Part shown: one piece after another, positions 729 to 17,222 of the stretch
Layout of the letters: each line of letters starts with the position of its first letter
Numbering within the stretch: the stretch's first letter is position 1
NCBI GenBank assembly: GCA_022710645.1
Contig: JAKLGL010000001.1
Span: 274,712-338,711 of the forward strand
Length of the DNA stretch: 64,000 nucleotides
Origin: Patescibacteria group bacterium
GTDB lineage: Bacteria > Patescibacteriota > Patescibacteriia > Magasanikbacterales > GWA2-37-8
Reading direction: 5' to 3'
Made by a program: the position numbers and the translations under genes
Notes under the pieces: model-generated
Database searches by the model: none
Seen by the model: the letters and a program-made list of their open reading frames with translations, nothing else
Told to the model about the DNA's origin: nothing

Positions 729-760
729 AAAAGCCGGGACAATAGTCTCGGCTTCTTTTT
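729..760. terminator. Bidirectional rho-independent terminator between convergent genes
   Basis: Hairpin AAGCCGGGAC-AATA-GTCTCGGCTT (one G.U pair) followed by a T-run. It sits between the stop of the + gene (710) and the stop of the giant minus-strand gene (789). Confidence 0.6.
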
Positions 761-788: not shown

Positions 789-3700
789 TTATTTTACTGA
801 TATACCTCCATTATATTCTTTCCACGCTTTATTTGAAGAATCACAATCATTAAAAGTATTAGAACCAAAAACTATTTCACTATAACATCCAATTCCATTA
901 TATCCTGCTGGATAATTAGTTGTATTATCACATTTTCCACTACACCACCCCCAATTATCTTTCACCTGAACAGCGGGTTTATATGTAATATTGGTATTGG
1001 CGATGTTAAGATAAAATTCATAATAATCAGCGCGACAGCCTTCTCCTCTGTTGTTTCCAAAACCTTCCGGATCATCATCAAGCGCCTGATTTTGAGGTTG
1101 ACATTTACCTTCTACTAAATTATCGGAAGATTCGTTATAAAAGACACAATCCCAATCTCCGTCGCAAGGAATTTGATATTTATAATCATCCGCGTTTGAC
1201 CAATTGGTTCCGCTTCCACCGACACAATAACCAAAATTGGTACATTTTGGTTTGCGGTTGCCCATACTCTCGGCTTCCACTTTTACAAAATCAACGTCAG
1301 AAATATTCTTTTTAACCCAAATACTGCGAAGAGGCATTTGCGCCGGATCGGCCCAAGCGTAAAATCGCAAGATAAGCGGTTGGCCGTAAGCTATTTGGAT
1401 ATCTTTACCCGTAACATTATCTCCAGTCACACTCATTTGATCAAGGACAAAAGAATTGCAAACTTTTTCCGCCTCGCATCCGAATTTATTGGCAGCCGCG
1501 GAATCTTTGCATTTTTGAATTTTAATATCACAATCTTCTTTTGACATTTTTACCGGAGCGGCGATTACCGGCGGACGGATTTTGATACCTAAATCTTTAG
1601 CTGCTTTAGGGGAAGCAAAATCAACTTTTAATCCTGCAGATCCAACCCACCCTTTAACAAACATTTTTCTGAACATGTTGCATATTGGAGAATCGTTCTT
1701 TTTAGAATTATCGCCATCTGGTAAAACATTTTCAAAAGGTATATTCTTTGAACAATCTGCCGCGATTTGATTTAAAGGAATGCGATATTTATAGGTATAT
1801 ATTTCTCCGTTTTCATAAGTACCATAATCCATCAAGTCGTTTTGCTTAGCTTCTTTAGAATCATAGTTAATTAATGCTACACCTCCATTTAAACTACCGC
1901 TATTACCCAATAAACCAAATGGTTGTTGATTGTCAGCATCCCAAAAATTAAAATATTTTCTAAAAGAATTTAAGAATTTCGGGTCTTCACCGTTTGTTAA
2001 ACCATAATACAATGAAGGGACGGCTTCTCTGCGAGCATAAATAGTTCTATATTTATAACTATTTGAATAAGCCGCAGATGAAGGTTGGTTATCATTAGAA
2101 TTATTAAAAAGAAATACCTTGTCCTTAATCAAACGCCAGGTTACAGGCTTTATGGAAAAAACATCTGTGTTGTCTCTAACAATGATTTTATCACTATTAT
2201 CCGCAGAACATGTCCCGTCAGAATAATGAACTATAAATATAAAAGCATTACCTCTTGACCCGTTTTCATCACCACCATCTATAGTGTTACAATTTGTAAT
2301 ATCACCAGAATGTTTTTCGTAAGTACCCCTAACATCTTTTGTTTCAACAGATAAACCGTCCAAAATTCCGTTTTCTGTCCATTTTATTTTCACAGTAAAT
2401 CCATTACTACCCTCTTTATATTTATCTTCTTCACAATTTATATTTCCATTAACACCCCAAATTTGCAGACCCCAATCGTTGCCGGTTAATTTTTGATAAC
2501 ATGTATTTGAAGGCTTAAAATAAGTTGAGGAAACAAAATACCCGCCATCACTATCTTTAAAAGCATCTGGCAAATTGTCATTTTTTGTGTTTAATTCAAA
2601 AAATTCTCCATTATAAAAAGTAAAGCGATTATTATCAAAATTATTTTCTATTCCTTCTTTAACCGAATCTGATACCAATACTTCTATTTTGGTAATTGAT
2701 TTTCTATCTATCTTTTCAAAAACGACATCAGAATCAGAGGAAGGAATACTATAATCTTCATTATCATCTGATGCATAAATATAATATGCTGTAGAATTAG
2801 GTGATAAATTTTTAATTAAAAGCTCCTGTCCGTTAACACCTTCGATCCCGGCATCATCATTATTTCTTTCACAGCCGAATTTTTTACCTTGAATATAATA
2901 AGGGTACATATAATTTCCTTGCCAGGAAATTTTTTGACCATTATCCGAATTTGAACACAATTCAGGAGAAGGGTTTTCACATTTTCCATTTATGTCATTT
3001 CCACAAATTTGCGTTGTACCACCAAAAGAATTAAGTGGTTCCAACTTTTCTCCCTCACCCCTAAAATCACTTCCTTTTACATACCACTCTCTCACAGGAT
3101 CCCCACTAGCATGGCTGATATATGAATTTAATTTTTGCGCATATTTATATGGTTCTATATTTGAAGCAGAACATGCCCAACTTGTATTATTAATACTATT
3201 TTTTACCGGATTATTATAAGCACATACTTCCAGAGGTGTTTTTTCTGTAACTCTCCACCCTGCTGTATCATCATAAACATACAAATCCGTAGCTCCTTCC
3301 ACTGATTCCACCGGCCACCAGGTCAAACAGGTATTATCCGTACCTCCGGCTGTGTAAAACGGATTTCTGACATCTTTTTCTACACAATAACCTTCCCAAC
3401 CAAGCAAAGCATTGATGGATTTCAAAGGAGAACAAATACCGCCACTGTTTTCATCTCCACAAGAATTGACAACTGTGGGATCACACCCTTTTCCTTCTTC
3501 CAATCCTCCCAAACAAACACCTTTGGCATAATCACCTTCAACAGCATTGCTTCCCAAATAAACATTTTGACTTTTATAATTGTATTTTTTATAACTGCAA
3601 TCACAATCTCCTCCAGAACACAGATTAACTTTATCGCTAAATCCTTTTTTAAACTCTCGATTAACTCCCGTAGCAGTACTATCTCGCAAAACCCAAAGAT

Positions 3701-6700
3701 TGAAAGGACTGTCCTGTTCCGGATATCCGCGACAGGATAACCCCGGAGATGCTTTGGGGTCTTCCATAACATCTGTTTTTTCCGTAGCATCCAAATCATA
3801 ACTTGAATAAGGCATTGCCGGGAATACGCATTCTTCTCCAGAGCAATAACCTTTTAAGCCTGGCATTTTGGCGCTTGAACATTCTTTCTTGGATGAAATA
3901 ACATCATTGACATTGCACACCGTAGTTGTAACTTCAGTATGAACAAGTTTATTTTCCGGAAGAATTATAAGTGGAATTCCATTTAAACCTGACACAGACG
4001 GATATTTTATTTCTCTAACTTGTAAATCGTAAATTTGATAAGAATTAAACAGAGAATATCCAGTAAACTCTTCGGCGTTCCAAGCCGTGGACCTGCTTTG
4101 ATAAACTTTTTTGGTAAGCGGAATATCTTTTTCCGAAGTCGAAGTGACTATATCCACACACTGTCCGTCACTGGTCGCACCGGCCTGGGCTTTGGTACAT
4201 AAACCCAAACGATAACAACGACTACTGAGTTGTCCCGTATCCCCGTCTCTATTGGTCATATATTCACTACAATAAGACCAGAGAGAACAAGTTCTATCCA
4301 ACATCACTTTCATGACAATATTGGCGTCATTGGTTGAAGCGTTATTTATCGGATCTACCAGGGCTCCGCCTTTTGCATTTGAAGCCGCGTAAGTTGCAGC
4401 CGTATCCCATGTTTTAGTCGGATTATCGGTTTTATCAAACAAAACACAACCGCTATTTAAACTTACTTTTCCCGAGCAATCTTTTTGCGCGTCGGAAATT
4501 TTACTGTTATTTATCAAATAGTATTCTTTATCCGGATCAGAACAAACATCTTTGGCATCACTAGTGCAATCTTTATCAAATTGACATTTTTTGCCGCTGA
4601 CGGCGCATTTCTTGCTTTGCGATTCTGAATATCTGTCGGTAAACAAAGTACAATCAGATTGATCAGCTGGACAAACACCGGTGTAATTCGCATAATTATC
4701 CGAACCGTAAGACGGTAAATAGCTTCCATTTACTGCCGAATTGTCCGCATAACAAATCGTGCTAGTAGTTCCTTTCATTAACCATTTATAAACGCCAGTA
4801 TCGTCTTTTTTCCATTCACAAATCAAATTGCCGTAAATCTCCGGATCTTTGAAATAATAATTGCTTGAACCGGATTTCCAAGAATCACAACCTTCGGCTT
4901 TATCATTACAAATAGAATTATCAAAATCTGAAGTATTAGGTTTGATTTTCAAATAAACATCTTGATATTTACGACTATCATCGGAAAGTAAAACAGAAGA
5001 ACCCAGAGCCGTACAACCTTTTTCCGCTTCCGCACATGAAACATTTTGATCTTTGAGCACCAGATAAATCGGTGATTCCGATCTTGGCGGAATAACTATG
5101 GTGGCAGTGGTGTAATATTCCGATAAAGCGCTCAATGCTCCGGACGGAGCGACTATTTTTTCTACATAACAACCATTTTCTTCTTTGGCGGCAAAACATT
5201 TCAAAGACACTCCGCCGACAGTCGTAGACAATTCTCCGCTTACGCCCGGTGTGCCAAATTCTGATTTTTTCAACCACAAATTATAGACAATATATTTTTT
5301 ACTGTCCGTACCGGCAAGTTCCCTATTGTTCGTATCGTAAACTTTGGTACACCCCTGTGCTCCATCACGGCAAAGATAACTAAAATTGTGCAAATATACG
5401 GGATTTAAACTTGCAGTGGTTTTGTAAGCGCGGCAACCCAAAGCTTGACCCGGTAAATTGTCTGTCTGGTCGGCATCGCACAAAGACGGCACTGTTAATT
5501 TATCTTTTACCAAATAAACAATATCGGAAACCAATTCAACTTTCACATTATCAACATACAAAATTTGACTTTGAACAGTGTTTGGTTTTAAAACCAATTG
5601 AGCTGTCAATTTATTTTGAGCGTCAGCATTGGCATCTTTTACAGCTTCAAAAACATATTCGTATCTCTTCCAATTATCCGTTAATGTAAAATCGGCAACA
5701 TTATTATTCAATAAATGCCAGAATCGTAAACCCCAAGATCCCGATCCTTTGGCCAAGAAAGAAACACGATAGCTTTTGCCCGGCGTCAAAGGTAGAGCAT
5801 AATATTTTGTCCCACTGGCTCCGCCGGCGTTTACCACTACTTTGAGAGAATGACCGTTATTTATCAAGCTTTCAGTAGAAACAGACAATGAAGTAAAAGA
5901 ATCCGCCGGATTGGCTTTTCCCCAAGTTTGAGTTTGGTTATCAGTGCCAAATACAACACTACCTTCAAAAGTTTGATTCATTAATGTATTGGAATAATTT
6001 CCAGTATTACCTTTATAAGGACGGCAAGAAACTTTTTCTTTGGCGCAAGCAAAACTGCCTCCGGCTGTCGTTTGTATTCCAGAAGGCAAACCGTTATAAA
6101 CACAATAACCAGTATTTACATCATAAAAAACCACCTTGTCTCCCCCGTCGTTTATACTTCCCAAGCAATCGGTACCAGTATCAAATTCAGGTTTAACTGC
6201 CCGATAAGAAGTACATTTGTCGGAAACCGCCACTGTTTTATTCAAGAAAACATAATATTTTTTACCCGTATCGTCTATCAATTCACGACATTGTTCTCCA
6301 TCGTCGGTTCTAAAATTGAAATCTTGAGCGGTTTGACTGCATTTTGAACGTAGCAAATCTCTTTCCGCAGTATCACGATACATTTGTTTCGGAGCGCCGG
6401 AACTTTCTTTTAATAAAACATAACTTATCAATTGATAACCACCGGCATCTCTGCCTTCATAAGTATAGAAATTCTTTTGTCTGTTTTTATCCGGCAAAAT
6501 ACAAGTTCGCAAATCAGTGAAATATTCCGTTTGTTCCAGGTTATTGCTAACCGTGGAAAGATTTACAAACGCGCTACAACCAGATTCTGAAGCACTGCAA
6601 CTCGCTTCTTTTTGCGGAATTATATAAGCCAAATCCGTCCCTTTACCGTATTTTGTCGGCATCTCTTTGTAAGAATTATAACCGACACAAGACGCATCGC

Positions 6701-9050
6701 ACTGATCATTCCAAGCAGTTACCACATTACTACTATTAACCGTGGCCGGAACAAATTTTCCAGTCACACTTTCTCCTGTCAAAAGACCGTCAAAATTAAG
6801 CGTCTGATACAATCCGCATCTTTCTTCTTCCGGCAAACAAACCGGAGAGTAATTTTTACAAGCGTCAGTACTGACTGGTTTTATTTTGTTGAAATCCGCT
6901 AAATTTTGTGGCCACTGCACGCCGTTACTGCGATTGTTATCACTATCATAACAACCTAAATAATCCGGCGCTTTTTTGAAATAAACAACATTTGATTCTG
7001 TCGAAGTATTCAGAGCCAAGGCCGTACAACCGGCATCTTTAGCTTGGCAAGTCTCTGTTTTTTTATTCAAATAAAAACCTTTTCCTTTGCCGTAATCCCA
7101 AGTTCCGCTGGCAAAATTACTGTTGGGATAAGTTTTGAAATTACTATAAAAAATACAACCAACATTATCACTGTCACACATCTCGCTATTGAGCGTTCTA
7201 GTTAAATAAGAAGAAGTTTTTCCTTTACTATTGGTTAAAACTTTACAAGTCGCATATTGACTATCGCAATAGTCAGCATCAAAACGCCAAACGCTTTTTT
7301 CTTTCAAACAATAACCGTAAGCCAAACATTTTCCGTTTTTGTCATAATCCACACAGGTTTGCAAATCAGCGCATTCTTCTTGACGAACCGGAGTATCTTT
7401 ATCTACAAGCTGAGTTCCGTAAACCAGAGATTTGCAACGAGCCGGCGGAATTTTCAAAACCCAATTCGGATTTATCAAGTGATAATAAGGAGAACGCACA
7501 TTATCAAAATTTTCCAAAATTTCTTTCAATGTCGGCGGACCGGAAACAAAAACATTTACCCCATTTGCATAAGCGGTGTTGGTAGCATTCACCTCGGTCA
7601 AAGAAGCTATTTCAAAACCAAGAGGTAGCACTCCGGCTTTGCGAAGAAGTTTGATATTTTTGTAACAAAAAGCTCCGGCATAACAATCTTTTTCACTATG
7701 TTGACGCTCAGTGGCTTCACCGGGGCCTATCAATTTCCAATTTTCATCCAAATAACCTTTTTCAATAGCGCCTCGAATAGTTAAAGGCTGACCTAATTCC
7801 GCCGATCTTATAGCTTGAGCAAACTGTTCATCAATCACGCAATTTTCAACTCCAGGATTATCCGGACAAGAAGAAAATTTTGATAAAAGATCATATTTGC
7901 TAATTTCTCTGGATTTGGCCACCAATAACAATTCGGCAAAAAGCGAAGCTGCTTCTTGTTTATAGGAAGATTCCCCGCCGGCATAATAATTTCCTTCAGC
8001 ATCGTATTTACTTTCCACGCAAGTATCTATGCTCAAACCGCCGATCTTGAGGTAACTCGGAACACATTTAACTTTTCCTAAACCAAAAGGAAACATGCCT
8101 TTGGTAAGAAAATTATCCATAGCCGTACCAGCGAAAGTATCTATAAAAGTAGAAGCCGCGTTCATCAAAACTTGTATAGAGCCTTTTTGTAAAGCCGCAG
8201 CCATATATTCTTGAGTGCTTTGTTTTTTACCCTCAACTTGTGCTCCTTTGCCGGCTTTTACTAACATATCTTTATTAACTTCAGCTGGAGTAATAATGTC
8301 GCCGGAAATAGCCGTGGTCAAAGATTTTACTCCCCCACCTTCGGTTCTTTCAGCCTTAGCAGCAGCCTCAGCATCGAGCGCATAACTATCCATTTTGCTT
8401 TTGGCTTCTATACCTATACCTAAATCAGTGTCGGAAATTTCCAAAGAAGTATTAAATCTCTTACTAAAACCTTCGCCGTTTTCCCCCCAATATTTACTTT
8501 TGATATTTTCCGCACTATAAGTATCTTTGAGCTGTTGAAAAGAACAGGTAGGTTTTGGTTCGGAGTAAGCCAAGTGCAAACCCATTTTCAAAGCCAAATC
8601 AAGTTTCGGATCAGGTAAACTACAAAGATTAAAACCGACACCTTTGGCAAAACTGTCCAAAGCCGTACCTAAAGCATCACCAGCCACTCCGGCCCAATAA
8701 TCACCCATGCTCTTGGTATTGAAAAGCGGAGATTGTCCCCAATTACCGGAAGCCAAACTCACAGCCATATCATATGCGACTTTATTTAAAAGAAAATCTA
8801 AACCTTTCATCGCACCAACCATTACCGAATCAATAAAATTATCTTCCACCTTATTCCAATTTTCTTCTAATTGAGCTTTTGTTTCATTCCATGTGTTCCA
8901 CATGTTTTGAGTATTGTCATAAGTTGGCAAGCCCTGAGCCATGGCCGGTGAGGCAAAAACAAAAGAAAAAGAAAAAATAACCAGAAGAAGGACTGGAAAT
9001 AGTTTAGGTTTAAGACGGGGAAAAAGGGACATAAAATATATAATTTTCAA
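789..9050 (-). CDS. Giant (2,753 aa) secreted Cys-rich extracellular protein; function unknown (candidate surface or adhesin protein)
   Basis: Single uninterrupted ORF. N-terminal signal peptide MKIIYFMSLFPRLKPKLFPVLLLVIFSFSFVFASPAMA. Composition is N/S/T/G/D/Y/C-rich with many paired Cys throughout. No catalytic motif was recognised. It is the last gene of a minus-strand operon. Confidence 0.6.
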   Translation of the reverse strand: MKIIYFMSLFPRLKPKLFPVLLLVIFSFSFVFASPAMAQGLPTYDNTQNMWNTWNETKAQLEENWNKVEDNFIDSVMVGAMKGLDFLLNKVAYDMAVSLASGNWGQSPLFNTKSMGDYWAGVAGDALGTALDSFAKGVGFNLCSLPDPKLDLALKMGLHLAYSEPKPTCSFQQLKDTYSAENIKSKYWGENGEGFSKRFNTSLEISDTDLGIGIEAKSKMDSYALDAEAAAKAERTEGGGVKSLTTAISGDIITPAEVNKDMLVKAGKGAQVEGKKQSTQEYMAAALQKGSIQVLMNAASTFIDTFAGTAMDNFLTKGMFPFGLGKVKCVPSYLKIGGLSIDTCVESKYDAEGNYYAGGESSYKQEAASLFAELLLVAKSREISKYDLLSKFSSCPDNPGVENCVIDEQFAQAIRSAELGQPLTIRGAIEKGYLDENWKLIGPGEATERQHSEKDCYAGAFCYKNIKLLRKAGVLPLGFEIASLTEVNATNTAYANGVNVFVSGPPTLKEILENFDNVRSPYYHLINPNWVLKIPPARCKSLVYGTQLVDKDTPVRQEECADLQTCVDYDKNGKCLAYGYCLKEKSVWRFDADYCDSQYATCKVLTNSKGKTSSYLTRTLNSEMCDSDNVGCIFYSNFKTYPNSNFASGTWDYGKGKGFYLNKKTETCQAKDAGCTALALNTSTESNVVYFKKAPDYLGCYDSDNNRSNGVQWPQNLADFNKIKPVSTDACKNYSPVCLPEEERCGLYQTLNFDGLLTGESVTGKFVPATVNSSNVVTAWNDQCDASCVGYNSYKEMPTKYGKGTDLAYIIPQKEASCSASESGCSAFVNLSTVSNNLEQTEYFTDLRTCILPDKNRQKNFYTYEGRDAGGYQLISYVLLKESSGAPKQMYRDTAERDLLRSKCSQTAQDFNFRTDDGEQCRELIDDTGKKYYVFLNKTVAVSDKCTSYRAVKPEFDTGTDCLGSINDGGDKVVFYDVNTGYCVYNGLPSGIQTTAGGSFACAKEKVSCRPYKGNTGNYSNTLMNQTFEGSVVFGTDNQTQTWGKANPADSFTSLSVSTESLINNGHSLKVVVNAGGASGTKYYALPLTPGKSYRVSFLAKGSGSWGLRFWHLLNNNVADFTLTDNWKRYEYVFEAVKDANADAQNKLTAQLVLKPNTVQSQILYVDNVKVELVSDIVYLVKDKLTVPSLCDADQTDNLPGQALGCRAYKTTASLNPVYLHNFSYLCRDGAQGCTKVYDTNNRELAGTDSKKYIVYNLWLKKSEFGTPGVSGELSTTVGGVSLKCFAAKEENGCYVEKIVAPSGALSALSEYYTTATIVIPPRSESPIYLVLKDQNVSCAEAEKGCTALGSSVLLSDDSRKYQDVYLKIKPNTSDFDNSICNDKAEGCDSWKSGSSNYYFKDPEIYGNLICEWKKDDTGVYKWLMKGTTSTICYADNSAVNGSYLPSYGSDNYANYTGVCPADQSDCTLFTDRYSESQSKKCAVSGKKCQFDKDCTSDAKDVCSDPDKEYYLINNSKISDAQKDCSGKVSLNSGCVLFDKTDNPTKTWDTAATYAASNAKGGALVDPINNASTNDANIVMKVMLDRTCSLWSYCSEYMTNRDGDTGQLSSRCYRLGLCTKAQAGATSDGQCVDIVTSTSEKDIPLTKKVYQSRSTAWNAEEFTGYSLFNSYQIYDLQVREIKYPSVSGLNGIPLIILPENKLVHTEVTTTVCNVNDVISSKKECSSAKMPGLKGYCSGEECVFPAMPYSSYDLDATEKTDVMEDPKASPGLSCRGYPEQDSPFNLWVLRDSTATGVNREFKKGFSDKVNLCSGGDCDCSYKKYNYKSQNVYLGSNAVEGDYAKGVCLGGLEEGKGCDPTVVNSCGDENSGGICSPLKSINALLGWEGYCVEKDVRNPFYTAGGTDNTCLTWWPVESVEGATDLYVYDDTAGWRVTEKTPLEVCAYNNPVKNSINNTSWACSASNIEPYKYAQKLNSYISHASGDPVREWYVKGSDFRGEGEKLEPLNSFGGTTQICGNDINGKCENPSPELCSNSDNGQKISWQGNYMYPYYIQGKKFGCERNNDDAGIEGVNGQELLIKNLSPNSTAYYIYASDDNEDYSIPSSDSDVVFEKIDRKSITKIEVLVSDSVKEGIENNFDNNRFTFYNGEFFELNTKNDNLPDAFKDSDGGYFVSSTYFKPSNTCYQKLTGNDWGLQIWGVNGNINCEEDKYKEGSNGFTVKIKWTENGILDGLSVETKDVRGTYEKHSGDITNCNTIDGGDENGSRGNAFIFIVHYSDGTCSADNSDKIIVRDNTDVFSIKPVTWRLIKDKVFLFNNSNDNQPSSAAYSNSYKYRTIYARREAVPSLYYGLTNGEDPKFLNSFRKYFNFWDADNQQPFGLLGNSGSLNGGVALINYDSKEAKQNDLMDYGTYENGEIYTYKYRIPLNQIAADCSKNIPFENVLPDGDNSKKNDSPICNMFRKMFVKGWVGSAGLKVDFASPKAAKDLGIKIRPPVIAAPVKMSKEDCDIKIQKCKDSAAANKFGCEAEKVCNSFVLDQMSVTGDNVTGKDIQIAYGQPLILRFYAWADPAQMPLRSIWVKKNISDVDFVKVEAESMGNRKPKCTNFGYCVGGSGTNWSNADDYKYQIPCDGDWDCVFYNESSDNLVEGKCQPQNQALDDDPEGFGNNRGEGCRADYYEFYLNIANTNITYKPAVQVKDNWGWCSGKCDNTTNYPAGYNGIGCYSEIVFGSNTFNDCDSSNKAWKEYNGGISVK

Positions 9051-9080
9051 TTTTTAATTTTCATTAAATTTTCAATCATC
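9040..9080. repeat. Left inverted-repeat arm (family B, ATTTTCAAT units) flanking a four-helix-bundle gene
   Basis: Sequence 'aattttcaatttttaattttcattaaattttcaatcatcaatttacaatttc'. Its reverse complement matches 9455-9510 and the gene-less copy at 22095-22200. Confidence 0.6.
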
Positions 9081-9483
9081 AATTTACAATTTCTTTATCA
9101 TTGCCTTTTCTGCTAGTCATGCCTATTTTTTGAAATATCATAGTTAGCTCCTGTGCTTCTGACCAGTATATCCTGAGTTCTTTTTTTAAATCTTCGTTAC
9201 AAACTGCTAACATTCTTAACCAGTGTTTTGTTTCTTGCGCTTCTTTTTTGCAAATAAATATTTTGTTTATAAAATCTTTTTTTGATGCCGCCCCATTGGC
9301 TTCCATATAATTAGCTCCCACACTAGTAGCTGATCGAATAATTTGACCAATCAAAGATTTGTTATATTCATTAATTCTTATTCTTTGACACAATTTAATA
9401 ATGTCTTCACCAAACTTTGCAGTCCTCTCTTCCAAATCATAACCAGATACCATATTTTGAAAATTAAAATATTGAAAATTCAA
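9079..9483 (-). CDS. Four-helix-bundle protein (PF05635/TIGR02436-like, '23S rRNA intervening-sequence protein' family)
   Basis: Motif ...SATSVGANYMEANGAASKKDFINKIFICKKEAQETKHWL... is typical of the family. The track ORF starts at a TTG; the probable true start is the ATG at 9453 (MVSGYDLE...). The gene is flanked by inverted repeats. Confidence 0.6.
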   Translation of the reverse strand: MNFQYFNFQNMVSGYDLEERTAKFGEDIIKLCQRIRINEYNKSLIGQIIRSATSVGANYMEANGAASKKDFINKIFICKKEAQETKHWLRMLAVCNEDLKKELRIYWSEAQELTMIFQKIGMTSRKGNDKEIVN

Positions 9484-9510
9484 TGAAAATTGTAAATTGT
9501 AAATTTTATT
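9455..9510. repeat. Right inverted-repeat arm (family B, ATTGAAAAT units)
   Basis: Sequence 'aaattaaaatattgaaaattcaatgaaaattgtaaattgtaaatttt'. Its reverse complement resembles 9040-9080 and 22105-22140. Confidence 0.6.
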
Positions 9511-10413
9511 TTACACTCCCCATTCAAATTTTCCCGTCGCTTCATTGTAATAATAAAGCTCTTTGATTTTTTCATCATTGTATTTGGCGGCAGTTTTTTC
9601 CAAAACTTCAAAAACACCTTCGCTATCTATAATTTCACTGGCTTCATTTTTAGGGAAAAATTGAATGATTTTTGATTTTATTTCCGAATATGACGGAACC
9701 GGCAAAGATTTACCGCCCGCCTTTTCTTCTTTTTGTGAAACAACATTATCTCCGATTTTCAAATTTCCGGTGCGAGCATATTCATCGGCAATTCTAAAAA
9801 TATCTTTTTTTTCAGAACCGAACATAAAATCTGTAAATTTATAGACATTTTCGACAAAAACCCCTTTATCATTCAAAAAATATTCGTTAAAATATTCATC
9901 TTTTGTTTGCAAATCTTCAAAAAGAACGTTTAAATATTTTTTAAATTCTTCTTTATTTTGAATTTGTCGAAATTTCACGATTACTTCCGAAAAAGCTATA
10001 CTTTTCTCTCCGATTTTCCCGATAATCGCTCCGGAATTTTTCATCGATTCTTTACAGGCGTTAAAATCTCCCAAAACTTCATCTTGGCTTTTCAAATAGT
10101 AATTTGAAGCTACATACAATAAAAATCTATCCAAAACATCGTATCCAAGCAAAAAAGACATGGCTATTTCTTTTTTAAAAAAAATGTCCTTGAGAAAATT
10201 TATAGGTAAATTCAAAAATCTTCTGAAACTTATCTCTGTAAACCAGCGCAAATATGATTTTCTCATTTCATAATCTTCTTCAAAATCGGTCGATGAAAAA
10301 ACATTTATCAAATCGCCAAAAAAAACATCCGCCTGTTCATTGGTAAACAAATCTATTTCAGCTTGCATTTTTTCCAATTGGCTATCATCCAAATTTAGCT
10401 GTGTTTTGATCAT
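9511..10413 (-). CDS. Hypothetical cytoplasmic protein (300 aa), middle gene of the giant-protein operon
   Basis: Intact ORF lying 8 nt downstream of the 1,054-aa gene. No TM segment or signal peptide. No recognisable family. Confidence 0.45.
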   Translation of the reverse strand: MIKTQLNLDDSQLEKMQAEIDLFTNEQADVFFGDLINVFSSTDFEEDYEMRKSYLRWFTEISFRRFLNLPINFLKDIFFKKEIAMSFLLGYDVLDRFLLYVASNYYLKSQDEVLGDFNACKESMKNSGAIIGKIGEKSIAFSEVIVKFRQIQNKEEFKKYLNVLFEDLQTKDEYFNEYFLNDKGVFVENVYKFTDFMFGSEKKDIFRIADEYARTGNLKIGDNVVSQKEEKAGGKSLPVPSYSEIKSKIIQFFPKNEASEIIDSEGVFEVLEKTAAKYNDEKIKELYYYNEATGKFEWGV

Positions 10414-10421
10414 ATGTCTTT

Positions 10422-13400
10422 TTATTTTTTATTTTTTCCTTGTTGTTTAGCGCCTTGTTCTACTCCTTTTTTAACAGCATCAGCTATTTTCTCGCTGGAT
10501 TTTGACAAAGCTTGGGCGACTTCTTTGGGAATTTTGGATAAAACCGCCTGAGCCGATCTCGAATTGTTTTCTATCATTTTCTCAAAAGTATTTACAAAAT
10601 CCTTGCCTAAATCCAAGTTTTTGAAACTTCCTGTCTTGGAATCAAGTAAATTCAAAAGTTCCGTGGAAAGACGGCCGTGGATACGTCCTTGGAAAGTGAA
10701 GTTTCTCAATGTTTGTATGATCATATTTTGAGCATGTTCATCCAAACCGACCATTTCTCCACTACTGTTAATTGAAGCTATACCGGACAAGCTCTCTAGG
10801 TCTCCGACTTTATTGGAAAGCGGGCCGGTAAAATATTTTTGACCTTCTAAAATTTTATTTTTATTTGTCTGTAATTTATATTCGGCTAAGCCATTCTTTC
10901 CCAAAGAAGTACCGTCGTAAATGGAAACCGTGTGCGAAAAACCGGAGGGCGCCGCAGCTCTGGCGGAAATATCGTTATTACGCAAAACTGTTTGCCAACT
11001 CTCGGCACCCATTTTTTCTTGACCAATTTTAAACATTTTTTTAGTTTCGTCCAACAACATTCTATCTCTTGTTTTTCCATATTCTTCGGCAAAAGCTTGA
11101 TCATAATCTTCATCTTTTAGAGGACCATACTTTTCTTCAATGTCTTTATCTGTTTCTGCTGATACCTTTTTGCTGTCAAGAATATCTTGCAAATCTATTT
11201 TTTCGCCAGCCATCCTTGCAGTTTCAACCAATTGATGAGCAAACGCATCTCCAGAATCGAGTTTGTCATATTTTATACCATAAGCTTCGTTAATGGATTT
11301 TTGTACCGCAGCAATACCGTCGGAACCGAAATTTTTAGCAGCCACGGATTCCATAGCAGCTTGATTGGATAATAAAGCTTTTCTTTCTCTTTCATAACTT
11401 TCTTTAGGCATAGCGGCTTTATTTTTATCCAATTCTATGACTTTATTGGCATTTTGAGCTGACATAGCTACCAATTCAGCATACTGTAAATTACCAAAAC
11501 TTTTCTCGCGTCCGGACTGTAACTCCGCCCAATAAGCAGCTTCGTTTGTCTTTGGTATAAATCTTTTTTCAGCTTGTTCATCTTTGGCTTTGGCAATTTC
11601 CAATTTTTTCTCATCTTCAACAATCATTTTGAGGGTTTCCGCACTGGCCTGTTGTCTATACACTTCATTTTGTTTTTCTCTGAATTTTTTATCTTGTTTT
11701 AATAATTCTTCTATTTTTTTGAGTTCTCTTATAGATTCTCTGGAACCGACTTCTTCTTTGAGTTGTTGTGTTTCAAGTTTAGTTTTAACAGTTTCTTCTT
11801 TCATGGTTCTGAAACGACTTTCTGATCTCAATTTTTCCTCAGCCGCTATTTTTTCTTGTTGTGCGGCAGTAAATTTTTTATAATCTTCAGATTCGCTTTT
11901 TAATCTTTCCAATTCTTTTTGTCTTTCCACATAACCGGCTTCACCCATTTTCAATTTAGCCATTTGATCCTTTATACGATCTTCTCTGGCTTGTTTCAAA
12001 CCTCCGGCTTGCGTTCCTTCCAATTCTTTTGCGAGAGTTTCTTCCATAATACCGGGCGCTTCAGTTTCAACCCAAGCTTGAGCATTTTCTTTAACACCAA
12101 TACCTCCAGCTTCTTTTCGTCTTTTTAATAATTCAGCATATGCTTTTACTCTTTCGTTTTGATTTTTTTGATTCCAGTTAGCTTTGGTTCCGGATAAATC
12201 ATCCAAAACACTATCCCATGCTTCGTTTTCTCCTTTGAGCTGTTTATTTAGTCTTTCATTCTTAACGGAACGATTATACATTTCGCCTACAAAACCACCT
12301 TCTCTGAGACTTCTGGCTGTAAATCTTTTTAAACCTGTTTTTGCGCCTTCATATCGATTCATCCAAGCATAACCGCCGATTCCCGGTGCATTCATAGCAA
12401 TACCCTTGGTAATACCAAGAGCAGCTCCTTTTGCTTTTTCCCCCGCCCAACCGGCCAATCTAACACCGGTAGCAACAGTAGCAATTTTCTTGGCCGTACT
12501 CATTGCCGAGCTTAAAGCGCTGGCACCAGTAACTCCAAGTTCCTGAGTTTTTTTAACACCGGTAATAAGCAAAGCAATAGCTATGGCAAAAGAAGCCATT
12601 TTACCCCATTCCATAGCCTGGGAAATACCGGTAGCCGTGCTACCAAATAACGCATTAGTTTCGTAACGTTTTGCCTGGTCAGTCGGCAAGACTTCATTAA
12701 AAGAATCTCCTCCACCAACTATGGCAAATGACAACCAGAAAAAGAAAGCTAAGATAGGACCAGCCATTACGTGATTGTTAAATTCTTTCCACCACTCAGA
12801 AGCGTATTTTTGGGTGTTTGGTAAAACACTACTCATAAACGCTATTGGCGAAAGAACTATCAAAGTCCACAAGGCTACAACACGAGCGATAACCACCAAT
12901 AAATAAGCTCCTATAACAAAAAAACTGATAACGGAAAAAAATACAGCAGCTACTCCGGTCACAAAAACATCCGTAGCGCTGGCGGCTTTTTGAGCCAATT
13001 CCTGATCCGGACTTAAATTGTAAATAGTATCTAAATTCAAACCTTTTATCACATTCCCTCCAGCAGTAGCGGCAAAGCCATTTACAAAAGTCATCATAAA
13101 AACCTGAGAAACATCGATAATCACACCGCAAATAACTCTGCTAAAATTCACCAACACGGCGGCGAAAACCAATTTTACTAAAAGTTTTTTCCATTCATAT
13201 TGTTCAATACCGAGAACCGTACCAAAAGCTATCACCAAAAGAATCAAAACAAAAAACATGTTCACTACATCGCGAACCAAAACCCAGCCCAGAATAACAG
13301 CTTGGGAGTTGATAAAATTATTATATGAAGCTATGACAATGAAAAGTTGCGACGCCCAAACCGTCAATTTGATAAAAAACTGGGCAATAAGCAACAACAT

Positions 13401-13586
13401 CCAAGTAATAATCGAGGCTATGCCCATAGAAATTTCTTCCGTAGTCGGCCAACCCCAAGCCAAAGCATACCCGGCAGTCAAAATCCCGCTAAAAACAAAT
13501 ACAAAAAATAACACAACCAGAAGTTTGTTTTTCTTGTTTTTTCCAAATCTGAATTTCTCCTTAATTTTCCCAAAAAAAGACGACAT
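10422..13586 (-). CDS. Polytopic membrane protein with a TrbL/VirB6-like N-terminal multi-TM domain (~330 aa) and a ~700-aa charged coiled-coil C-terminal extension
   Basis: At least 6 hydrophobic helices within residues 20-330, with a layout and Trp/Pro pattern reminiscent of TrbL/VirB6 (PF04610). The remainder is E/K/Q/A-rich predicted coiled coil. It is the first gene of the operon, with promoter at 13667-13695. Family assignment is by eye only. Confidence 0.4.
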   Translation of the reverse strand: MSSFFGKIKEKFRFGKNKKNKLLVVLFFVFVFSGILTAGYALAWGWPTTEEISMGIASIITWMLLLIAQFFIKLTVWASQLFIVIASYNNFINSQAVILGWVLVRDVVNMFFVLILLVIAFGTVLGIEQYEWKKLLVKLVFAAVLVNFSRVICGVIIDVSQVFMMTFVNGFAATAGGNVIKGLNLDTIYNLSPDQELAQKAASATDVFVTGVAAVFFSVISFFVIGAYLLVVIARVVALWTLIVLSPIAFMSSVLPNTQKYASEWWKEFNNHVMAGPILAFFFWLSFAIVGGGDSFNEVLPTDQAKRYETNALFGSTATGISQAMEWGKMASFAIAIALLITGVKKTQELGVTGASALSSAMSTAKKIATVATGVRLAGWAGEKAKGAALGITKGIAMNAPGIGGYAWMNRYEGAKTGLKRFTARSLREGGFVGEMYNRSVKNERLNKQLKGENEAWDSVLDDLSGTKANWNQKNQNERVKAYAELLKRRKEAGGIGVKENAQAWVETEAPGIMEETLAKELEGTQAGGLKQAREDRIKDQMAKLKMGEAGYVERQKELERLKSESEDYKKFTAAQQEKIAAEEKLRSESRFRTMKEETVKTKLETQQLKEEVGSRESIRELKKIEELLKQDKKFREKQNEVYRQQASAETLKMIVEDEKKLEIAKAKDEQAEKRFIPKTNEAAYWAELQSGREKSFGNLQYAELVAMSAQNANKVIELDKNKAAMPKESYERERKALLSNQAAMESVAAKNFGSDGIAAVQKSINEAYGIKYDKLDSGDAFAHQLVETARMAGEKIDLQDILDSKKVSAETDKDIEEKYGPLKDEDYDQAFAEEYGKTRDRMLLDETKKMFKIGQEKMGAESWQTVLRNNDISARAAAPSGFSHTVSIYDGTSLGKNGLAEYKLQTNKNKILEGQKYFTGPLSNKVGDLESLSGIASINSSGEMVGLDEHAQNMIIQTLRNFTFQGRIHGRLSTELLNLLDSKTGSFKNLDLGKDFVNTFEKMIENNSRSAQAVLSKIPKEVAQALSKSSEKIADAVKKGVEQGAKQQGKNKK

Positions 13587-13666
13587 GTATTTGTTTTTTT
13601 AGTCGCCTAAATCAATCCTAAAAATCAAATTAAACTAAAATTTTCAGGATCGCTTTGGACAATTAG

Positions 13667-13695
13667 ATTATAACACATTTTGGCTAAACTTACAA
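13667..13695 (-). promoter_or_regulatory. Sigma70-type promoter for the giant-protein operon (minus strand)
   Basis: Reverse complement reads TTGTAA-17 nt-TATAAT with an extended -10 (TGtgTTATAAT). It lies about 75 nt upstream of the start at 13586. Confidence 0.5.
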
Positions 13696-13856
13696 AATTA
13701 AAACTATCCACAGGGTTTATAAAATTAAAAAGATTGAAAAATTAAAAAATTAAAAGATTAAAGAACTAACAAAATCAACAAAACAAGCTTTGAAAAAACT
13801 GTAAAATTTATAAACCTTATAAACTATTTTTAACTAATTTTAGCTAAAATATACCC

Positions 13857-13903
13857 TTGACAAAACTGCTAAAATGTGCTATAATAATCTGTTCTTTAAC
13901 AAT
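13857..13903 (+). promoter_or_regulatory. Consensus sigma70 promoter (TTGACA-17-TATAAT, extended -10) plus conserved leader motif GTTCTTTAACAAT
   Basis: TTGACA at 13857-13862, a 17-nt spacer, TATAAT at 13880-13885, leader motif at 13891-13903, GGAG RBS at 13911, ATG at 13921. Confidence 0.65.
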
Positions 13904-13920: not shown

Positions 13921-14160
13921 ATGGTTAATTTTGGAGAAAAGATAAATTCCAAACCGGCTGAAAAGCACAAAATCCTGCAAAACTTGCAAAAAGATACGGT
14001 AAAAGAGTTTTTTGGAAAAAAGGATGCTTTTGCCAAAAAAACCTTTTTTATCGCCATGGTGATTTTTATCACAGCGGGATTGGTCGCCTGGTTTTCCAGT
14101 TCACTGGTGCCAATAGGTATTTTCGCCTTTTTGGCATTCATGAGCACATTTCTCATTTAA
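13921..14160 (+). CDS. Small membrane protein (79 aa), unknown function
   Basis: Has its own promoter and RBS. Contains two hydrophobic helices. Confidence 0.4.
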   Translation: MVNFGEKINSKPAEKHKILQNLQKDTVKEFFGKKDAFAKKTFFIAMVIFITAGLVAWFSSSLVPIGIFAFLAFMSTFLI

Positions 14161-14178
14161 AAAGGGGGAGGAAAAAAG

Positions 14179-15042
14179 ATGAACGAAAGATATGAAAAGA
14201 TCAGAGAGGAAATCAGAAATTTCAAACTGTGTGTCGGAAAAGAAAAATATCCGACCATGACAGTACATGAATACACCGGATTTGAAAACATTTTGAAGGA
14301 GATGGAAAAGGAGAAAGAGATAACGGACAGTGCGGTTAATATACTGGAACAGAACTGGCTCAAAACTCTTCTGTTTAATCTCGGAAAAGAGATTGAGCGG
14401 TATGAAACCGCTCTGGATATTGAATATGTTCAGAACTTGAACGCGGAAAAGTATGTCTCTCTCAACAGAGAGGACTACTACCGCGTAGTAGAAGATTACA
14501 ATCGTCTGGTTGAAAAAGCGCATCTGAGGCGAGAAGAGCTCAACGCTCTGGCGAAAAGCTGGAGAGATGACGAGGAAGTAAAAGCCTTCGACAAAGGTGA
14601 GTTGAAAGTCGCATGGTCCTACCGCATGAAGGAAGAAATGCGAGAACAAAAACGAGAAGCCACTGAAAAAAATTACCAAGAGAGATGGGCCGCGATATGG
14701 CACGATATATTCGCGGTAATCTGTTTCGTGGTAGGAATCTGTCTAGGCTTTTTCACAAAAAGTCTCATTACTACCTTGTTTGTCACTTTCACTTCGCTAT
14801 TGGTTATGAAGGAGGCTTTTGAAACCTCCAATATTACCGTAGCGCCACGCAGTGCCAACGCTTATCTGTTTTCCTACACTGCCTATTCGGTCGTCGTGGG
14901 TGTGGGCAGTTCCCTTTGGACATTATACCTTTCTCTTTTCAGCAAGGTTGGTGGAAACTCGTTGATAGTTTTTGTCATCACAATGCTGGCGCTTTTATTG
15001 ATCCTATCTTCTTACAATAAGAAGATATTCAAAAAAGCATAG
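14179..15042 (+). CDS. Membrane protein: N-terminal cytoplasmic coiled-coil domain plus 3-4 C-terminal TM helices, unknown function
   Basis: GGAGG RBS upstream. Terminator hairpin at about 15054-15085. Confidence 0.5.
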   Translation: MNERYEKIREEIRNFKLCVGKEKYPTMTVHEYTGFENILKEMEKEKEITDSAVNILEQNWLKTLLFNLGKEIERYETALDIEYVQNLNAEKYVSLNREDYYRVVEDYNRLVEKAHLRREELNALAKSWRDDEEVKAFDKGELKVAWSYRMKEEMREQKREATEKNYQERWAAIWHDIFAVICFVVGICLGFFTKSLITTLFVTFTSLLVMKEAFETSNITVAPRSANAYLFSYTAYSVVVGVGSSLWTLYLSLFSKVGGNSLIVFVITMLALLLILSSYNKKIFKKA

Positions 15043-15053
15043 TCGTTCTTTTC

Positions 15054-15085
15054 ACAGAGACCCTTTCAGAGGGTCTCTTTTTATT
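15054..15085 (+). terminator. Rho-independent terminator
   Basis: Hairpin GAGACCCT-TTCAG-AGGGTCTC followed by a T-run. Confidence 0.65.
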
Positions 15086-15095
15086 TAAAAAAATC

Positions 15096-15147
15096 TTGAC
15101 CAAATTTAAAAATTAAGATAAACTAACACGATTGGTTCTTTAACAAT
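15096..15147 (+). promoter_or_regulatory. Sigma70 promoter (TTGACC-17-TAAACT) plus conserved leader CACGATTGGTTCTTTAACAAT
   Basis: -35 at 15096-15101, -10 at 15119-15124, leader at 15125-15147, AAGGAGG RBS at 15160, ATG at 15172. Confidence 0.6.
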
Positions 15148-15171
15148 TTTTACAACATAAAGGAGGTTATC

Positions 15172-16395
15172 ATGGAAGACTGGCAAAGAAACGGCATGGT
15201 GAAATGGGACGCCTGGCAATACATGTTTGTCGGGGAGGCTTTCAAATTTCAGGCTAATGCCCTTGATGAATCGTTGAGTAAACATCGTGAGCTGGTTTGT
15301 CGGGAATATTTAAAAAATACCGATCGACTCATTGCCAGCCAAGAAACTGTTTATGAAATCATTGACGGAATCGTAGAAAAAATCAGCAACAAACAAAACC
15401 CGTCAGCTATCATTGCAAACAGTAACAGCCAATTGTCAGAAACTTTTATTCGCGGCACCAGTCAAGTTTTATCTAGTTTATCTTTTCTGCAGGAGGATAT
15501 TAACAACGGATTTTCCAATATCAGTGATAAACTTGAAGACATCAGTGACGCAATTGGTAATTTAGGAGCTTCTTTTAACTGGGGTGTAGACAGATTGGTT
15601 TGGCATCTGAGCGACATCAAAAAAACCATTCAAATGCCGATTGACAATAAAGCGCTAAACTATCGTATGCGTGGCATTAATGCTTATCAAAACGGTTGGT
15701 TTGACGAAGCCCTGAAAGAATTTATCCAGGCTAACTCTTACTACGAATACGATTTCATCACTCATCAGTACTTGGGAGATCTTTATCTTTACTACAAGAA
15801 AGATCTGAATAGAGCGCTTGAACATTTTCGCCGCGCGGCGAAATATTCAATGGTAAAAAACGCTTCGGTAGAACACAAAAAAATCAGTAGCTGGGCAGAA
15901 CTGCACATCGGTCTTGTCTTCTACAAAAAAAATGATTTCGAAGAAGCAGCTCAAGCCGCTTATCGTGCCGCCACCAAAAACCCTAGTCCGGAAGCTATGT
16001 ATCAGATAGGACACTATATGTCTTTGACCAAACAAAAGGATGAGAGATTAAAAAATATTCTCAGTGCTTTCGAGCAAGCCATCCGCGAAGATCCTGTTTA
16101 TTTTCTCAAAATAGACATGGATCATAATCTTTTTGAAAGAGACCTTTATAAAATCAGAAATGAAATGAAAGCACTCAAAGAATCGCTTTTTAGAGAAGAA
16201 CGGGAAAAAGCTTGGCAAAAAATCTCTAAACTCAAGCATATTTTTGAATCGACCAAATGGCATTATAACGCCAGCACAATAACCGAGATAGATAAAATGA
16301 AAGAAGACCTGCGTTTAGTGGAAGAAATGTTCAAAAACCGCCAAAGTTATCTTGATTTCAGAATAATCCAAGAAATATGCGGAAAAAACATATAA
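15172..16395 (+). CDS. TPR-repeat protein (407 aa), cytoplasmic
   Basis: Several 34-aa TPR-like units (for example ALNYRMRGINAYQNGWFDEALKEFIQA and WAELHIGLVFYKKNDFEEAAQAAYRAA). Confidence 0.55.
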   Translation: MEDWQRNGMVKWDAWQYMFVGEAFKFQANALDESLSKHRELVCREYLKNTDRLIASQETVYEIIDGIVEKISNKQNPSAIIANSNSQLSETFIRGTSQVLSSLSFLQEDINNGFSNISDKLEDISDAIGNLGASFNWGVDRLVWHLSDIKKTIQMPIDNKALNYRMRGINAYQNGWFDEALKEFIQANSYYEYDFITHQYLGDLYLYYKKDLNRALEHFRRAAKYSMVKNASVEHKKISSWAELHIGLVFYKKNDFEEAAQAAYRAATKNPSPEAMYQIGHYMSLTKQKDERLKNILSAFEQAIREDPVYFLKIDMDHNLFERDLYKIRNEMKALKESLFREEREKAWQKISKLKHIFESTKWHYNASTITEIDKMKEDLRLVEEMFKNRQSYLDFRIIQEICGKNI

Positions 16396-16423
16396 AAAAC
16401 TAAACATGTTGTGAAGCGTTAAT

Positions 16424-16452
16424 GAGCGAGTCTTATATGACTCGCTTTTTTA
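16424..16452 (+). terminator. Rho-independent terminator
   Basis: Hairpin GAGCGAGTC-TTATAT-GACTCGCTC followed by TTTTTTA. Confidence 0.65.
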
Positions 16453-16470
16453 TTTAATAATTTACGACTC

Positions 16471-16523
16471 TTGACTGAACTTCAAAATTAAGCTATATTA
16501 GCACGATTAGTTCTTTAACAATT
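16471..16523 (+). promoter_or_regulatory. Sigma70 promoter (TTGACT-17-TATATT) plus conserved leader CACGATTAGTTCTTTAACAAT
   Basis: -35 at 16471-16476, -10 at 16494-16499, leader at 16500-16523. Confidence 0.6.
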
Positions 16524-16530
16524 TTATATA

Positions 16531-17166
16531 ATGGAGATTAAAATGAATGGTAAAGGCAGAGAGACTCCGCTTTCAGAACGCTTAGAAAATTTAAAAAAAT
16601 TATCGGAATCAGAGAGAGCAAAGGATGAAGCTGAGGCTAAGAGAAAAAAAGAAGAAGAGGAAAGAAAAAGAAAAGAGGAGGAAGAAAGAAAAAAAGAAGA
16701 AGAGGAAAGAAAAAAACGAAGACAACTATCTGAAGAATACAAAAAACTAGCAGAAGAAAAAGAGAGAAAAGAAAAGATAGAAGAAGAAGAAAGAAAAAGA
16801 ATTTATCATGAAATCATCGATATTCATAAAACCAGGAACATTGCTGCCGTTGTTTTAAGTATTATTGGTACGATTATCGCTCTTTCTGTTGCGGGTATGG
16901 ATGAAAGTAACTCAATGAAAGAAATGTTTGGACTTTTGATAGTCGGGGGCCTGGTGGCTATTGTATTTCCTCCAGCCATCGTTGTTGCCGGAATCGCCCT
17001 TATCATTATTCTGTTAGTCTTAGCAATAATCATAATTCCTGTTGTTTTGGGAGTGGTAATTATCATATTCATGATAGCGGAAATTTATTGTAATGCAAAT
17101 TATGGCTGGGGTTATCGAAAATACATACAATATCATTCAGCCAAAAATAATTATTACGACGATTAA
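16531..17166 (+). CDS. Membrane protein with an E/R/K-rich single-alpha-helix-like N-terminal region and 3 C-terminal TM helices
   Basis: EEEERKRKEEEERKKEEEERKK low-complexity charged helix followed by hydrophobic helices. The likely true start is the ATG at 16545, 7 nt after GGAG. Terminator at 17194-17222. Confidence 0.5.
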   Translation: MEIKMNGKGRETPLSERLENLKKLSESERAKDEAEAKRKKEEEERKRKEEEERKKEEEERKKRRQLSEEYKKLAEEKERKEKIEEEERKRIYHEIIDIHKTRNIAAVVLSIIGTIIALSVAGMDESNSMKEMFGLLIVGGLVAIVFPPAIVVAGIALIIILLVLAIIIIPVVLGVVIIIFMIAEIYCNANYGWGYRKYIQYHSAKNNYYDD

Positions 17167-17193
17167 TCTCATTTGACTAAAAAGTTTTGTTAT

Positions 17194-17222
17194 TAAGCGG
17201 GCTAATTAAGCTCGCTTTTTTA
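17194..17222 (+). terminator. Rho-independent terminator
   Basis: Hairpin AAGCGGGC-TAATTA-GCTCGCTT (one G.U pair) followed by a T-run. The sequence is similar to the terminator at 16424. Confidence 0.6.

Follow-up and report, generated by a model that had tools for sequence, protein, structure and literature searches.

Among the described systems, the closest to the genes analyzed here is the Patescibacteria type IV secretion system (T4SS), a machine of the monoderm, MPF-FATA-like type. As presented in the available part of a recent survey (Quinonero-Coronel et al. 2025, PMC12102498), this system comprises VirB4, TrsD, VirB3/PrgI and VirB6, no adhesin was detected, and VirB4 is present in 2,417 of the 3,035 Patescibacteria assemblies. 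In the Saccharibacterium Southlakia epibionticum, epibiotic growth requires the T4SS (Wang et al. 2023, PMC10633639). The subject of this article is a trio of genes in a 64,000-nt stretch (the window) of contig JAKLGL010000001.1, from a member of the Magasanikbacteria, a group that is placed in the class ABY1 in a table of PMC12102498. All on the minus strand, these genes encode a 1054-aa VirB6-like protein (13586-10422), a 300-aa protein denoted B (10413-9511), the open reading frame (ORF) of which starts 8 nt past the VirB6-like stop codon, and a giant secreted protein of 2747 aa (9032-789). In relatives, the orthologs of the trio lie within the T4SS gene cluster, and we consider it fairly probable that the region in the window represents a detached sub-module of the Patescibacteria monoderm-type T4SS.

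The N-terminal part of the 1054-aa protein (about residues 1-411; 12354..13586, minus strand) is a polytopic membrane domain in which residues 22-344 include 7-8 hydrophobic segments, in agreement with the at least six transmembrane (TM) helices claimed in a preliminary description of this DNA and above the five TM segments or more by which TrbL/VirB6 proteins are recognized. An AlphaFold2 (AF2) model of residues 1-420 is all-helical, with a mean predicted local distance difference test score (pLDDT) of 66 and values of 70-90 in the core, and in a Foldseek search of the PDB, its fold superposes on solved VirB6, the top seven matches all being chains of R388 stalk or Stalk-Arches-IMC entries. 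At the level of the family, sequence comparison brings up TrbL (PF04610) in 5 of 19 members at E values of up to 1 (best E 3.1e-4), including one (P0076) that, at 26.1 bits, is the sole member above the curated cut-off of 25.9, and TrbL is the only Pfam family touched by several members. The comparison with PF04610 that had been proposed in the preliminary description gives no match for the 1054-aa protein itself. Because the fold, the weak family-level TrbL matches and the gene context all agree, the suggestion of a VirB6/TrbL-type N-terminal domain is borne out, and the predicted homology to VirB6 can be regarded as well supported.

The 1054-aa protein has an identical counterpart in a metagenome-assembled genome of Candidatus Magasanikbacteria. 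This family includes at least 362 homologs, which range from 612 to 1782 aa; residues ~60-411 are conserved, with 41-52% identity in most homologs, the tails are variable, and the membrane domain of the window protein keeps 43 of the 43 invariant residues. The tail of the window protein is a hydrophilic C-terminal extension (about residues 412-1054; 10422..12353, minus strand), K/E-rich and Cys-free, and its charged character, claimed previously, is evident in the composition of the last 634 aa (K 12.3%, E 11.8%, no Cys). Across 74 homologs, identity in the tail is only 8-21% per 30-aa block, that is, this part of the protein evolves fast. With a core in residues 1-411 and, after it, a K/E-rich tail of ~640 aa, the protein fits the recognized class of extended VirB6 proteins (reviewed in PMC12857230), and an extended VirB6 it is: a VirB6/TrbL-fold core with a long, fast-evolving hydrophilic tail. 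The tail is predicted to be cytoplasmic because the termini are K/R-rich and the number of TM segments is even; it is unrelated to the known VirB6 extensions and very variable. The window protein differs also from TrwI/VirB6 of R388 (PDB 7O3V, 8RT9), to which its sequence is 11-15% identical, and belongs to a monoderm system that lacks VirB5, VirB7, VirB9 and VirB10. Among the homologs, the PF19590 label recorded for two proteins in precomputed annotation was not reproduced by our own scan, and an apparent fusion of the giant and VirB6 in one 3577-aa frame (locus L043) is artificial, being produced by a scaffold gap of 100 N.

The gene context of the relatives ties the trio to a named machine. 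Look-ups of three distant homologs gave a canonical order, namely, a ~200-aa protein, the giant (2,500-2,780 aa in these clusters), the VirB6-like protein, B, a protein denoted C, PrgI (PF12666, the VirB3 equivalent), a TraC-like protein (PF26593), VirB4 (labeled as VirB4-type DUF87 / AAA_10 / P-loop_TraG), and two small genes, one of which is ComF-like, with a double zinc ribbon and a phosphoribosyltransferase domain. From what is available of PMC12102498, the TraC-like protein is probably the TrsD-like component of that study. The neighborhood was surveyed in GTDB species representatives, which yielded 80 loci (L009-L088) that were scored with hidden Markov models (HMMs) built in this analysis; the loci with at least 7 kb of downstream sequence (n=39) are informative for the downstream genes, and 58 loci are informative for the giant. 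VirB4 was found downstream in 35 of the 39 loci and PrgI in 36 of them, and the giant adjoins the VirB6-like gene in 43 of the 58 (40 upstream, 3 downstream), so that the pairing of these two genes, which the preliminary description had noticed in a single sequence, is conserved in evolution. KsgA is encoded upstream and the ComF-like protein downstream of the canonical cluster, as given for ABY1 in the available part of PMC12102498.

The core of the cluster in the relatives is the published Patescibacteria T4SS, and because the trio of the relatives lies among PrgI/VirB3, the TraC-like protein and VirB4, the statement of the preliminary description that this is not a known named system does not hold: relatives embed the trio in the MPF-FATA-like T4SS (PMC12102498, PMC10633639). 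What differs is that the accessible portion of PMC12102498, where unannotated genes are shown in grey, makes no mention of the giant or B. The components of the cluster also differ in their rates of change. The VirB4 proteins are 74-96% identical (L005, L006 and 11 of the loci L009-L088; alignment A5), whereas the VirB6-like domains of the genomes compared for VirB4 are only ~40-50% identical to that of the window; judging from these alignments, VirB4 changes at a far lower rate than the parts in the membrane and at the surface. Several loci with no giant upstream (L019, L042, L060, L061, L072, L082) tend to encode VirB6-like proteins of much greater length (1560-1930 aa), without B being detected, and in L087, the giant is located after PrgI, which suggests alternative solutions for the same role.

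The clade to which the window belongs, namely, L009, L012 and two genomes that were each sampled twice (L004/L011 and L007/L013), departs from the canonical arrangement. Here, the order is VirB6-like, B, giant, as opposed to giant, VirB6-like, B, and in the window as well as in all these loci, the trio stands apart from the other T4SS genes. The flanks in the clade are of the housekeeping kind (enolase, two genes for cofactor-independent phosphoglycerate mutase (iPGM), a DHH protein, tRNA synthetases), and Pfam searches with the genes neighboring the trio likewise return housekeeping functions. The separation from the cluster has not been accompanied by decay: in the comparison with L009, VirB6, B and the giant have dN/dS values of 0.05, 0.25 and 0.09, respectively, at dS near 1, indicating that the trio is under purifying selection. 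According to the available part of PMC12102498, that survey spanned the neighborhood within 20 coding sequences of virB4, so that a detached VirB6-like gene would fall outside its 'associated' set.

The giant is the most unusual member of the trio. Its ORF is unbroken, its composition is rich in S, G, K, N, D and Y, and it contains 100 Cys. The sole hydrophobic segment is a Sec-type signal peptide at the N-terminus (residues 1-32, MSLFPRLKPKLFPVLLLVIFSFSFVFASPAMA, with predicted cleavage before QG; 8937..9032, minus strand), and in this respect, too, the preliminary description, which had portrayed an unbroken, Cys-rich protein with a signal peptide, proved accurate. The Ala of the predicted AxA cleavage site is invariant in sets of 23 and of 12 homologs, and ~75 of the 100 Cys, many of them arranged as Cx6C pairs, reach a conservation of at least 90% among 23 full-length homologs. 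The conserved signal peptide and the conserved Cys together point to Sec export and extracellular folding. The sequence of the giant contains no LPXTG-like motif, no other TM segment and no C-terminal anchor, and the searches against Pfam and NCBIfam returned no Pfam adhesin domain and nothing beyond a weak match to CBM_4_9 (E 0.012, 16.5 bits, below the cut-off of 25.9). The region in question (about residues 1005-1175; 5508..6020, minus strand) appears to form a beta-jelly-roll similar to carbohydrate-binding modules (CBMs) of families 4/9/16/22. Nothing else in the AF2 tile is modeled with confidence (the block pLDDT of this region is mostly 64-85), a Foldseek search of the PDB gives E 3e-7 and TM-scores of 0.64-0.70 to CBM22, CBM4 and CBM16, and PF02018 is on record for several homologs of the giant, in some cases marked as weak. 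We make no fold claim beyond this domain because the AF2 pLDDT for residues 30-1190 is 43.8; the N-terminal 290 aa are predicted, with low confidence, to be all-helical.

Conservation along the giant is uneven. In the 23 full-length homologs, block identity is 0.25-0.57 in most of the core (residues 1-1950), drops to 0.13-0.19 in a variable region (about residues 1950-2550; 1383..3185, minus strand), and the C-terminus (2550-2747) is again conserved and Cys-rich. The giant of the window is homologous to those encoded beside the VirB6-like genes of L005 and L006 (phmmer, 1029 and 1003 bits, respectively); all 19 of the 19 named database homologs are annotated as 'hypothetical protein', and a phmmer search of the PDB produced marginal matches only. 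BLAST comparison of the giant with itself detected no internal repeat pairs, only the recurring Cx6C motif. Taken at face value, these sequence features suggest that the giant is probably an extracellular adhesin or stalk rather than cargo.

Protein B is predicted to be soluble and acidic (53 D+E versus 40 K+R). It has no match in Pfam, NCBIfam or the PDB, the search of PDB sequences with the family profile included, and its identification as a member of the trio comes from context and homology: an HMM derived from the successor of the VirB6-like gene in three canonical clusters recognizes B of the window with E 7.8e-24, and wherever B was detected, it is the next detected family past the VirB6-like gene, usually, immediately downstream. 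The family counts 308 representatives in a library of 1.84 billion proteins, all of a single architecture and about 280-440 aa long. Across the family, the N-terminal 240 aa diverge to ~30% identity, and the C-terminal ~62 aa (9514..9699, minus strand) constitute a near-invariant domain, PSYSEIK..ILQFFPKDE.GEIID.EGVFEVLEKTA.KY.D.KIKELYYYNEATGKFEWGV (alignment A4). An HMM of this domain matches nothing but the C-terminal end of the gene that comes next to B's position past the VirB6-like gene, both in the window and in 38 loci; such a pattern would be consistent with a docking domain.

Two known types of extracellular T4SS proteins invite comparison with the giant. VirB5 is Sec-exported and encoded together with VirB6, and, docked on VirB6, it makes contact with the target cell. 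The giant resembles VirB5 (TrwJ), as it sits on the VirB6 pentamer of R388, in being predicted to be Sec-exported, extracellular and linked to VirB6, which is a functional analogy only: the giant exceeds VirB5 in size more than 10-fold, is rich in Cys, and no sequence similarity between the two can be detected. With the PrgB-type adhesins of Gram-positive T4SS, it shares the large size, secretion, the signal peptide and the linkage to a monoderm T4SS, and plausibly, a role in cell-cell contact, but it differs from them in having no LPXTG, C-terminal anchor or Pfam adhesin domain, and 100 Cys; in the available part of PMC12102498, PrgB HMMs retrieved nothing from Patescibacteria.

If the trio is indeed a detached sub-module of the T4SS, the following scheme can be proposed. 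The extended VirB6 would serve as the membrane platform. The giant would leave the cell by the Sec pathway, fold outside with the formation of many disulfides, and be retained at the surface because it docks on the outer side of the VirB6 platform, in the manner of VirB5 in the R388 stalk. There, it would act as an adhesin or stalk that touches the host, with the CBM-like domain binding a glycan and the variable region setting the specificity. B and, probably, the VirB6 tail would reside in the cytoplasm and link the platform to ATPase machinery whose genes are located elsewhere in the genome. A bolder version of this scheme, tentative and, to our mind, possible rather than likely, is that the giant is the missing extracellular part of the Patescibacteria T4SS, a stalk or adhesin that fills, on the extended VirB6, the role of VirB5 and pili in diderm systems, that its CBM-like domain binds a glycan of the host envelope and its variable region sets the host range, and that VirB6, B and the giant make up a separable 'contact module', the genes of which can lie away from those of the ATPase core.

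Several observations weigh against the sub-module interpretation. Scans of the 1054-aa protein against Pfam and NCBIfam yield no match, TrbL not appearing even at E of 10; the family profile finds no VirB6 by sequence among the PDB entries; and the Foldseek E value is modest (5e-3), with a model of mean pLDDT 66. In 15 of the 58 informative loci, there is no giant beside the VirB6-like gene, and the poor AF2 result for residues 30-1190 leaves most of the fold of the giant unmodeled. That the giant docks on VirB6, that it is an adhesin and that B is cytoplasmic are steps that we infer. Furthermore, C, PrgI, the TraC-like protein, VirB4 and the families denoted D and E are all absent from the window, its 10-kb flanks and the 23-kb loci of the clade relatives: the search for the T4SS core, with HMMs made from 55-59 sequences each and filters off, returned nothing at E < 0.2. 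A search for secretion ATPases had been proposed in the preliminary description; it was run on the window and 10 kb past either end, ~84 kb of the ~560-kb contig, and none was found there. Because no T4SS core gene lies in these ~84 kb, a working T4SS in the genome of the window is an assumption.

The absence of a T4SS ATPase gene from the ~84 kb is what one would expect of an autonomous surface module, in which the VirB6-like protein would be an anchor or assembly platform for the giant and B its cytoplasmic partner, without a VirB4 machine, and the same can be said of the purifying selection on the trio and of its preservation as a unit, away from all T4SS genes, in every clade member seen. 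We nevertheless consider such autonomy unlikely. The membrane domain has lost none of its 43 invariant residues, the genes of one machine can disperse, and VirB4 itself seems to be indispensable in Magasanikbacteria because it is 74-96% identical among related loci; in the same vein, the available part of PMC12102498 records it in 2,417 of 3,035 assemblies. On both counts, an ATPase core elsewhere in the genome of the window has a high prior probability. Separation from VirB4, together with the 2-bp deletion that splits the ORF of the giant in one assembly (L003), could also be read as the mark of incidental adjacency or of a decaying T4SS remnant. This interpretation is largely refuted, and we see next to no chance of it being correct, given that the adjacency holds across loci with VirB6 domains only 40-50% identical, dN/dS is 0.05-0.25 at dS near 1, and the 8.2-kb ORF is intact in three assemblies other than L003.

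The remaining alternatives keep the T4SS and assign it, or the giant, a different task. In the preliminary description, the giant had been envisaged as possible cargo, and its conserved adjacency to a channel gene as well as the existence of Patescibacteria T4SS that lack a relaxase and may export proteins (PMC10633639 and the available part of PMC12102498) would accord with a T4SS substrate. The Sec signal peptide, conserved down to the invariant Ala of the cleavage site, argues to the contrary, as do the ~75 of 100 Cys that are conserved and imply oxidative folding outside the membrane; besides, Sec export in a monoderm already delivers the protein to the exterior, with no need for a T4SS step. 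As a rule, a T4SS picks up its substrates in the cytoplasm. On this evidence, the cargo role is very improbable. A machine for DNA uptake, similar to the ComB T4SS of Helicobacter, with the giant capturing or processing the substrate at the surface, appears quite unlikely as well, despite the ComF-like gene at the end of the canonical cluster and the reports, in the available part of PMC12102498, of comF, recG and radA near ABY1 T4SS genes and of relaxases being largely absent in Patescibacteria. No feature of the window has to do with DNA, the CBM-like domain points to the binding of glycans rather than DNA, and in the one Saccharibacterium tested, competence (comEC) is dispensable and the T4SS essential (PMC12857230, summarizing PMC10633639). 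Among the Pfam labels of the inspected loci of relatives, there is neither a relaxase nor VirD4, although no search was aimed at either.

The integrity of the long ORF was a concern of the preliminary description, which had raised the possibility of a chimeric artefact. The locus is the same in three independent assemblies, with ENA and JGI among the sources and one SNP relative to the window, and a chimera is thus ruled out. In L003 (JGI assembly 3300025715), two bases, AT within GCATATGAT, are deleted at window positions 8774-8775 (L003 13002-13264), and the resulting frameshift breaks the ORF of the giant into 86 + 2659 aa; this may be either a gene-inactivating strain variant or an assembly error. 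The open frame of the giant, which ends at 789, extends upstream to a TTG at 9050 (minus strand), and two independent gene calls choose the ATG at 9032, which is the likely start.

The three minus-strand ORFs noted originally are all present, with the giant probably starting at 9032 instead of 9050; overlooked between B and the giant was a fourth gene, for a four-helix-bundle/23S rRNA intervening sequence (IVS) protein of 124-134 aa (9079-9453, or 9483 by the furthest start, minus strand; PF05635, E 4.8e-15; TIGR02436, E 2.4e-21). It is the core of an IVS-like cassette (9035..9512) delimited by inverted-repeat arms at 9035-9076 and 9471-9512 (repeat I8, 42 nt, 86% complementary), of which the downstream one stops 3 nt before the ATG of the giant. 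In both the minimum free energy and the centroid fold, the cassette ends pair to form a long terminal stem around the ORF. In a blastn analysis of the junctions, L011 and L012 carry the cassette, whereas the closest relative, L009, and L013 lack it at the same site, and the gene tables concur, with a 78-aa ORF at the site in L004 (the L011 genome) and a 98-bp gap in L007 (the L013 genome). The cassette shares with the 23S rRNA IVS elements the protein family and the placement of the ORF within a long terminal stem, but it is located in an mRNA intergenic spacer, not in rRNA, and its presence at the site varies among close relatives. A second PF05635 cassette, with inverted repeats of ~42-44 nt, a long terminal stem and a folding z-score of -7.3, occupies 18467-18931, and the same AT-rich repeat has a third copy, devoid of an ORF, at 22098-22217, between iPGM and enolase. 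By analogy, these cassettes look like elements of the rRNA-IVS type placed in mRNA spacers, and because of this resemblance, what had been described as one operon may instead be a processed transcript. The proximity of an Avd-like four-helix-bundle gene to the giant also raised the idea of a diversity-generating retroelement, which was rejected: no credible template/variable pair for the giant gene was seen among the 20 direct-repeat families inspected, out of at least 60, those touching the giant being short and A/T-rich, and no reverse transcriptase was seen among the ORFs scanned.

The promoter claimed upstream of the trio is present as a consensus match, TTGTAA-17 nt-TATAAT with an extended -10 TG (13667..13695, minus strand; 10/12 in a sigma-70-like consensus scan), 80 nt upstream of the start codon of the VirB6-like gene. 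Because such matches are frequent in AT-rich DNA (71 observed versus 43 expected in 15 kb), its function as a promoter is only plausible. A perfect 12/12 match runs in the opposite direction on the plus strand (13857-13885) of the same divergent intergenic region, 330 bp in size, that contains both sites. At the other end of the trio, 35 nt past the stop codon of the giant, is a GC-rich, bidirectional terminator-like hairpin with T-runs on either side (731..754), shared with a convergent gene (138-710). An Rfam scan of the window gave no matches.

Opposite the VirB6-like gene, a divergent plus-strand operon (13921-18465) encodes proteins of 79 aa (with two TM segments), 287 aa, 407 aa (a TPR protein) and 211 aa, and one of the DHH family; comparable divergent series that end in a DHH protein appear in the gene tables of L004 and L007, and no tie of this operon to T4SS families was found. 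The 79-aa ORF (13921-14160) matched PrgI once, with E 7.8e-4, and the match, which vanished with both the 3-sequence and the 58-sequence HMM, is considered spurious. An extended promoter-like motif, CTTGACA...GCTAAAAT.TGCTATAAT, precedes several unrelated genes (13851-13893, 47669-47711, 48758-48800, 53586-53631), with conservation that exceeds the needs of a -35/-10 pair. Elsewhere in the window, tandem iPGM paralogs (18930-20507 and 20530-22113) lie beside enolase, an arrangement conserved in L004 and L007, and a CHASE2 / adenylate-guanylate cyclase gene followed by one for a FecR-domain protein (40194-43152) forms a signaling pair amid housekeeping genes. A repeat of ~57 nt, TGTCATCCTGAACG.AGTGAAGGATCTGCA..., occurs in both orientations at 44742-44798, 51833-51889 and 53738-53769, and a GC-rich palindrome, CCTGCCTGCCGGCAGGCAGGT, has four intergenic copies (36271-36304, 45626-45659, 51877-51910, 52907-52940); these sequences may be terminators or small mobile repeats.

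The T4SS and VirB6 of Patescibacteria were already known, and the module proposed here refines this known system, as a source of hypotheses, rather than adding a new kind. In our literature searches, we found no description of a linkage of the giant with the T4SS cluster, of B with VirB6, or of the detached trio, nor of any giant or cysteine-rich T4SS partner in the Candidate Phyla Radiation. For the epibiotic life of a cultivated Patescibacterium, the T4SS is the one machine demonstrated to be essential, and the survey of the whole phylum reported no adhesin. A conserved family of giant proteins, 2,500-3,200 aa in size, Sec-exported and endowed with a CBM-like domain, the genes of which adjoin the VirB6-like gene in many members of the Magasanikbacteria, offers a concrete candidate for host contact, and B, with its near-invariant 62-aa domain, is likewise a candidate contact component. 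The detached arrangement in the clade of the window, moreover, implies that surveys of virB4 neighborhoods can miss T4SS-linked genes.

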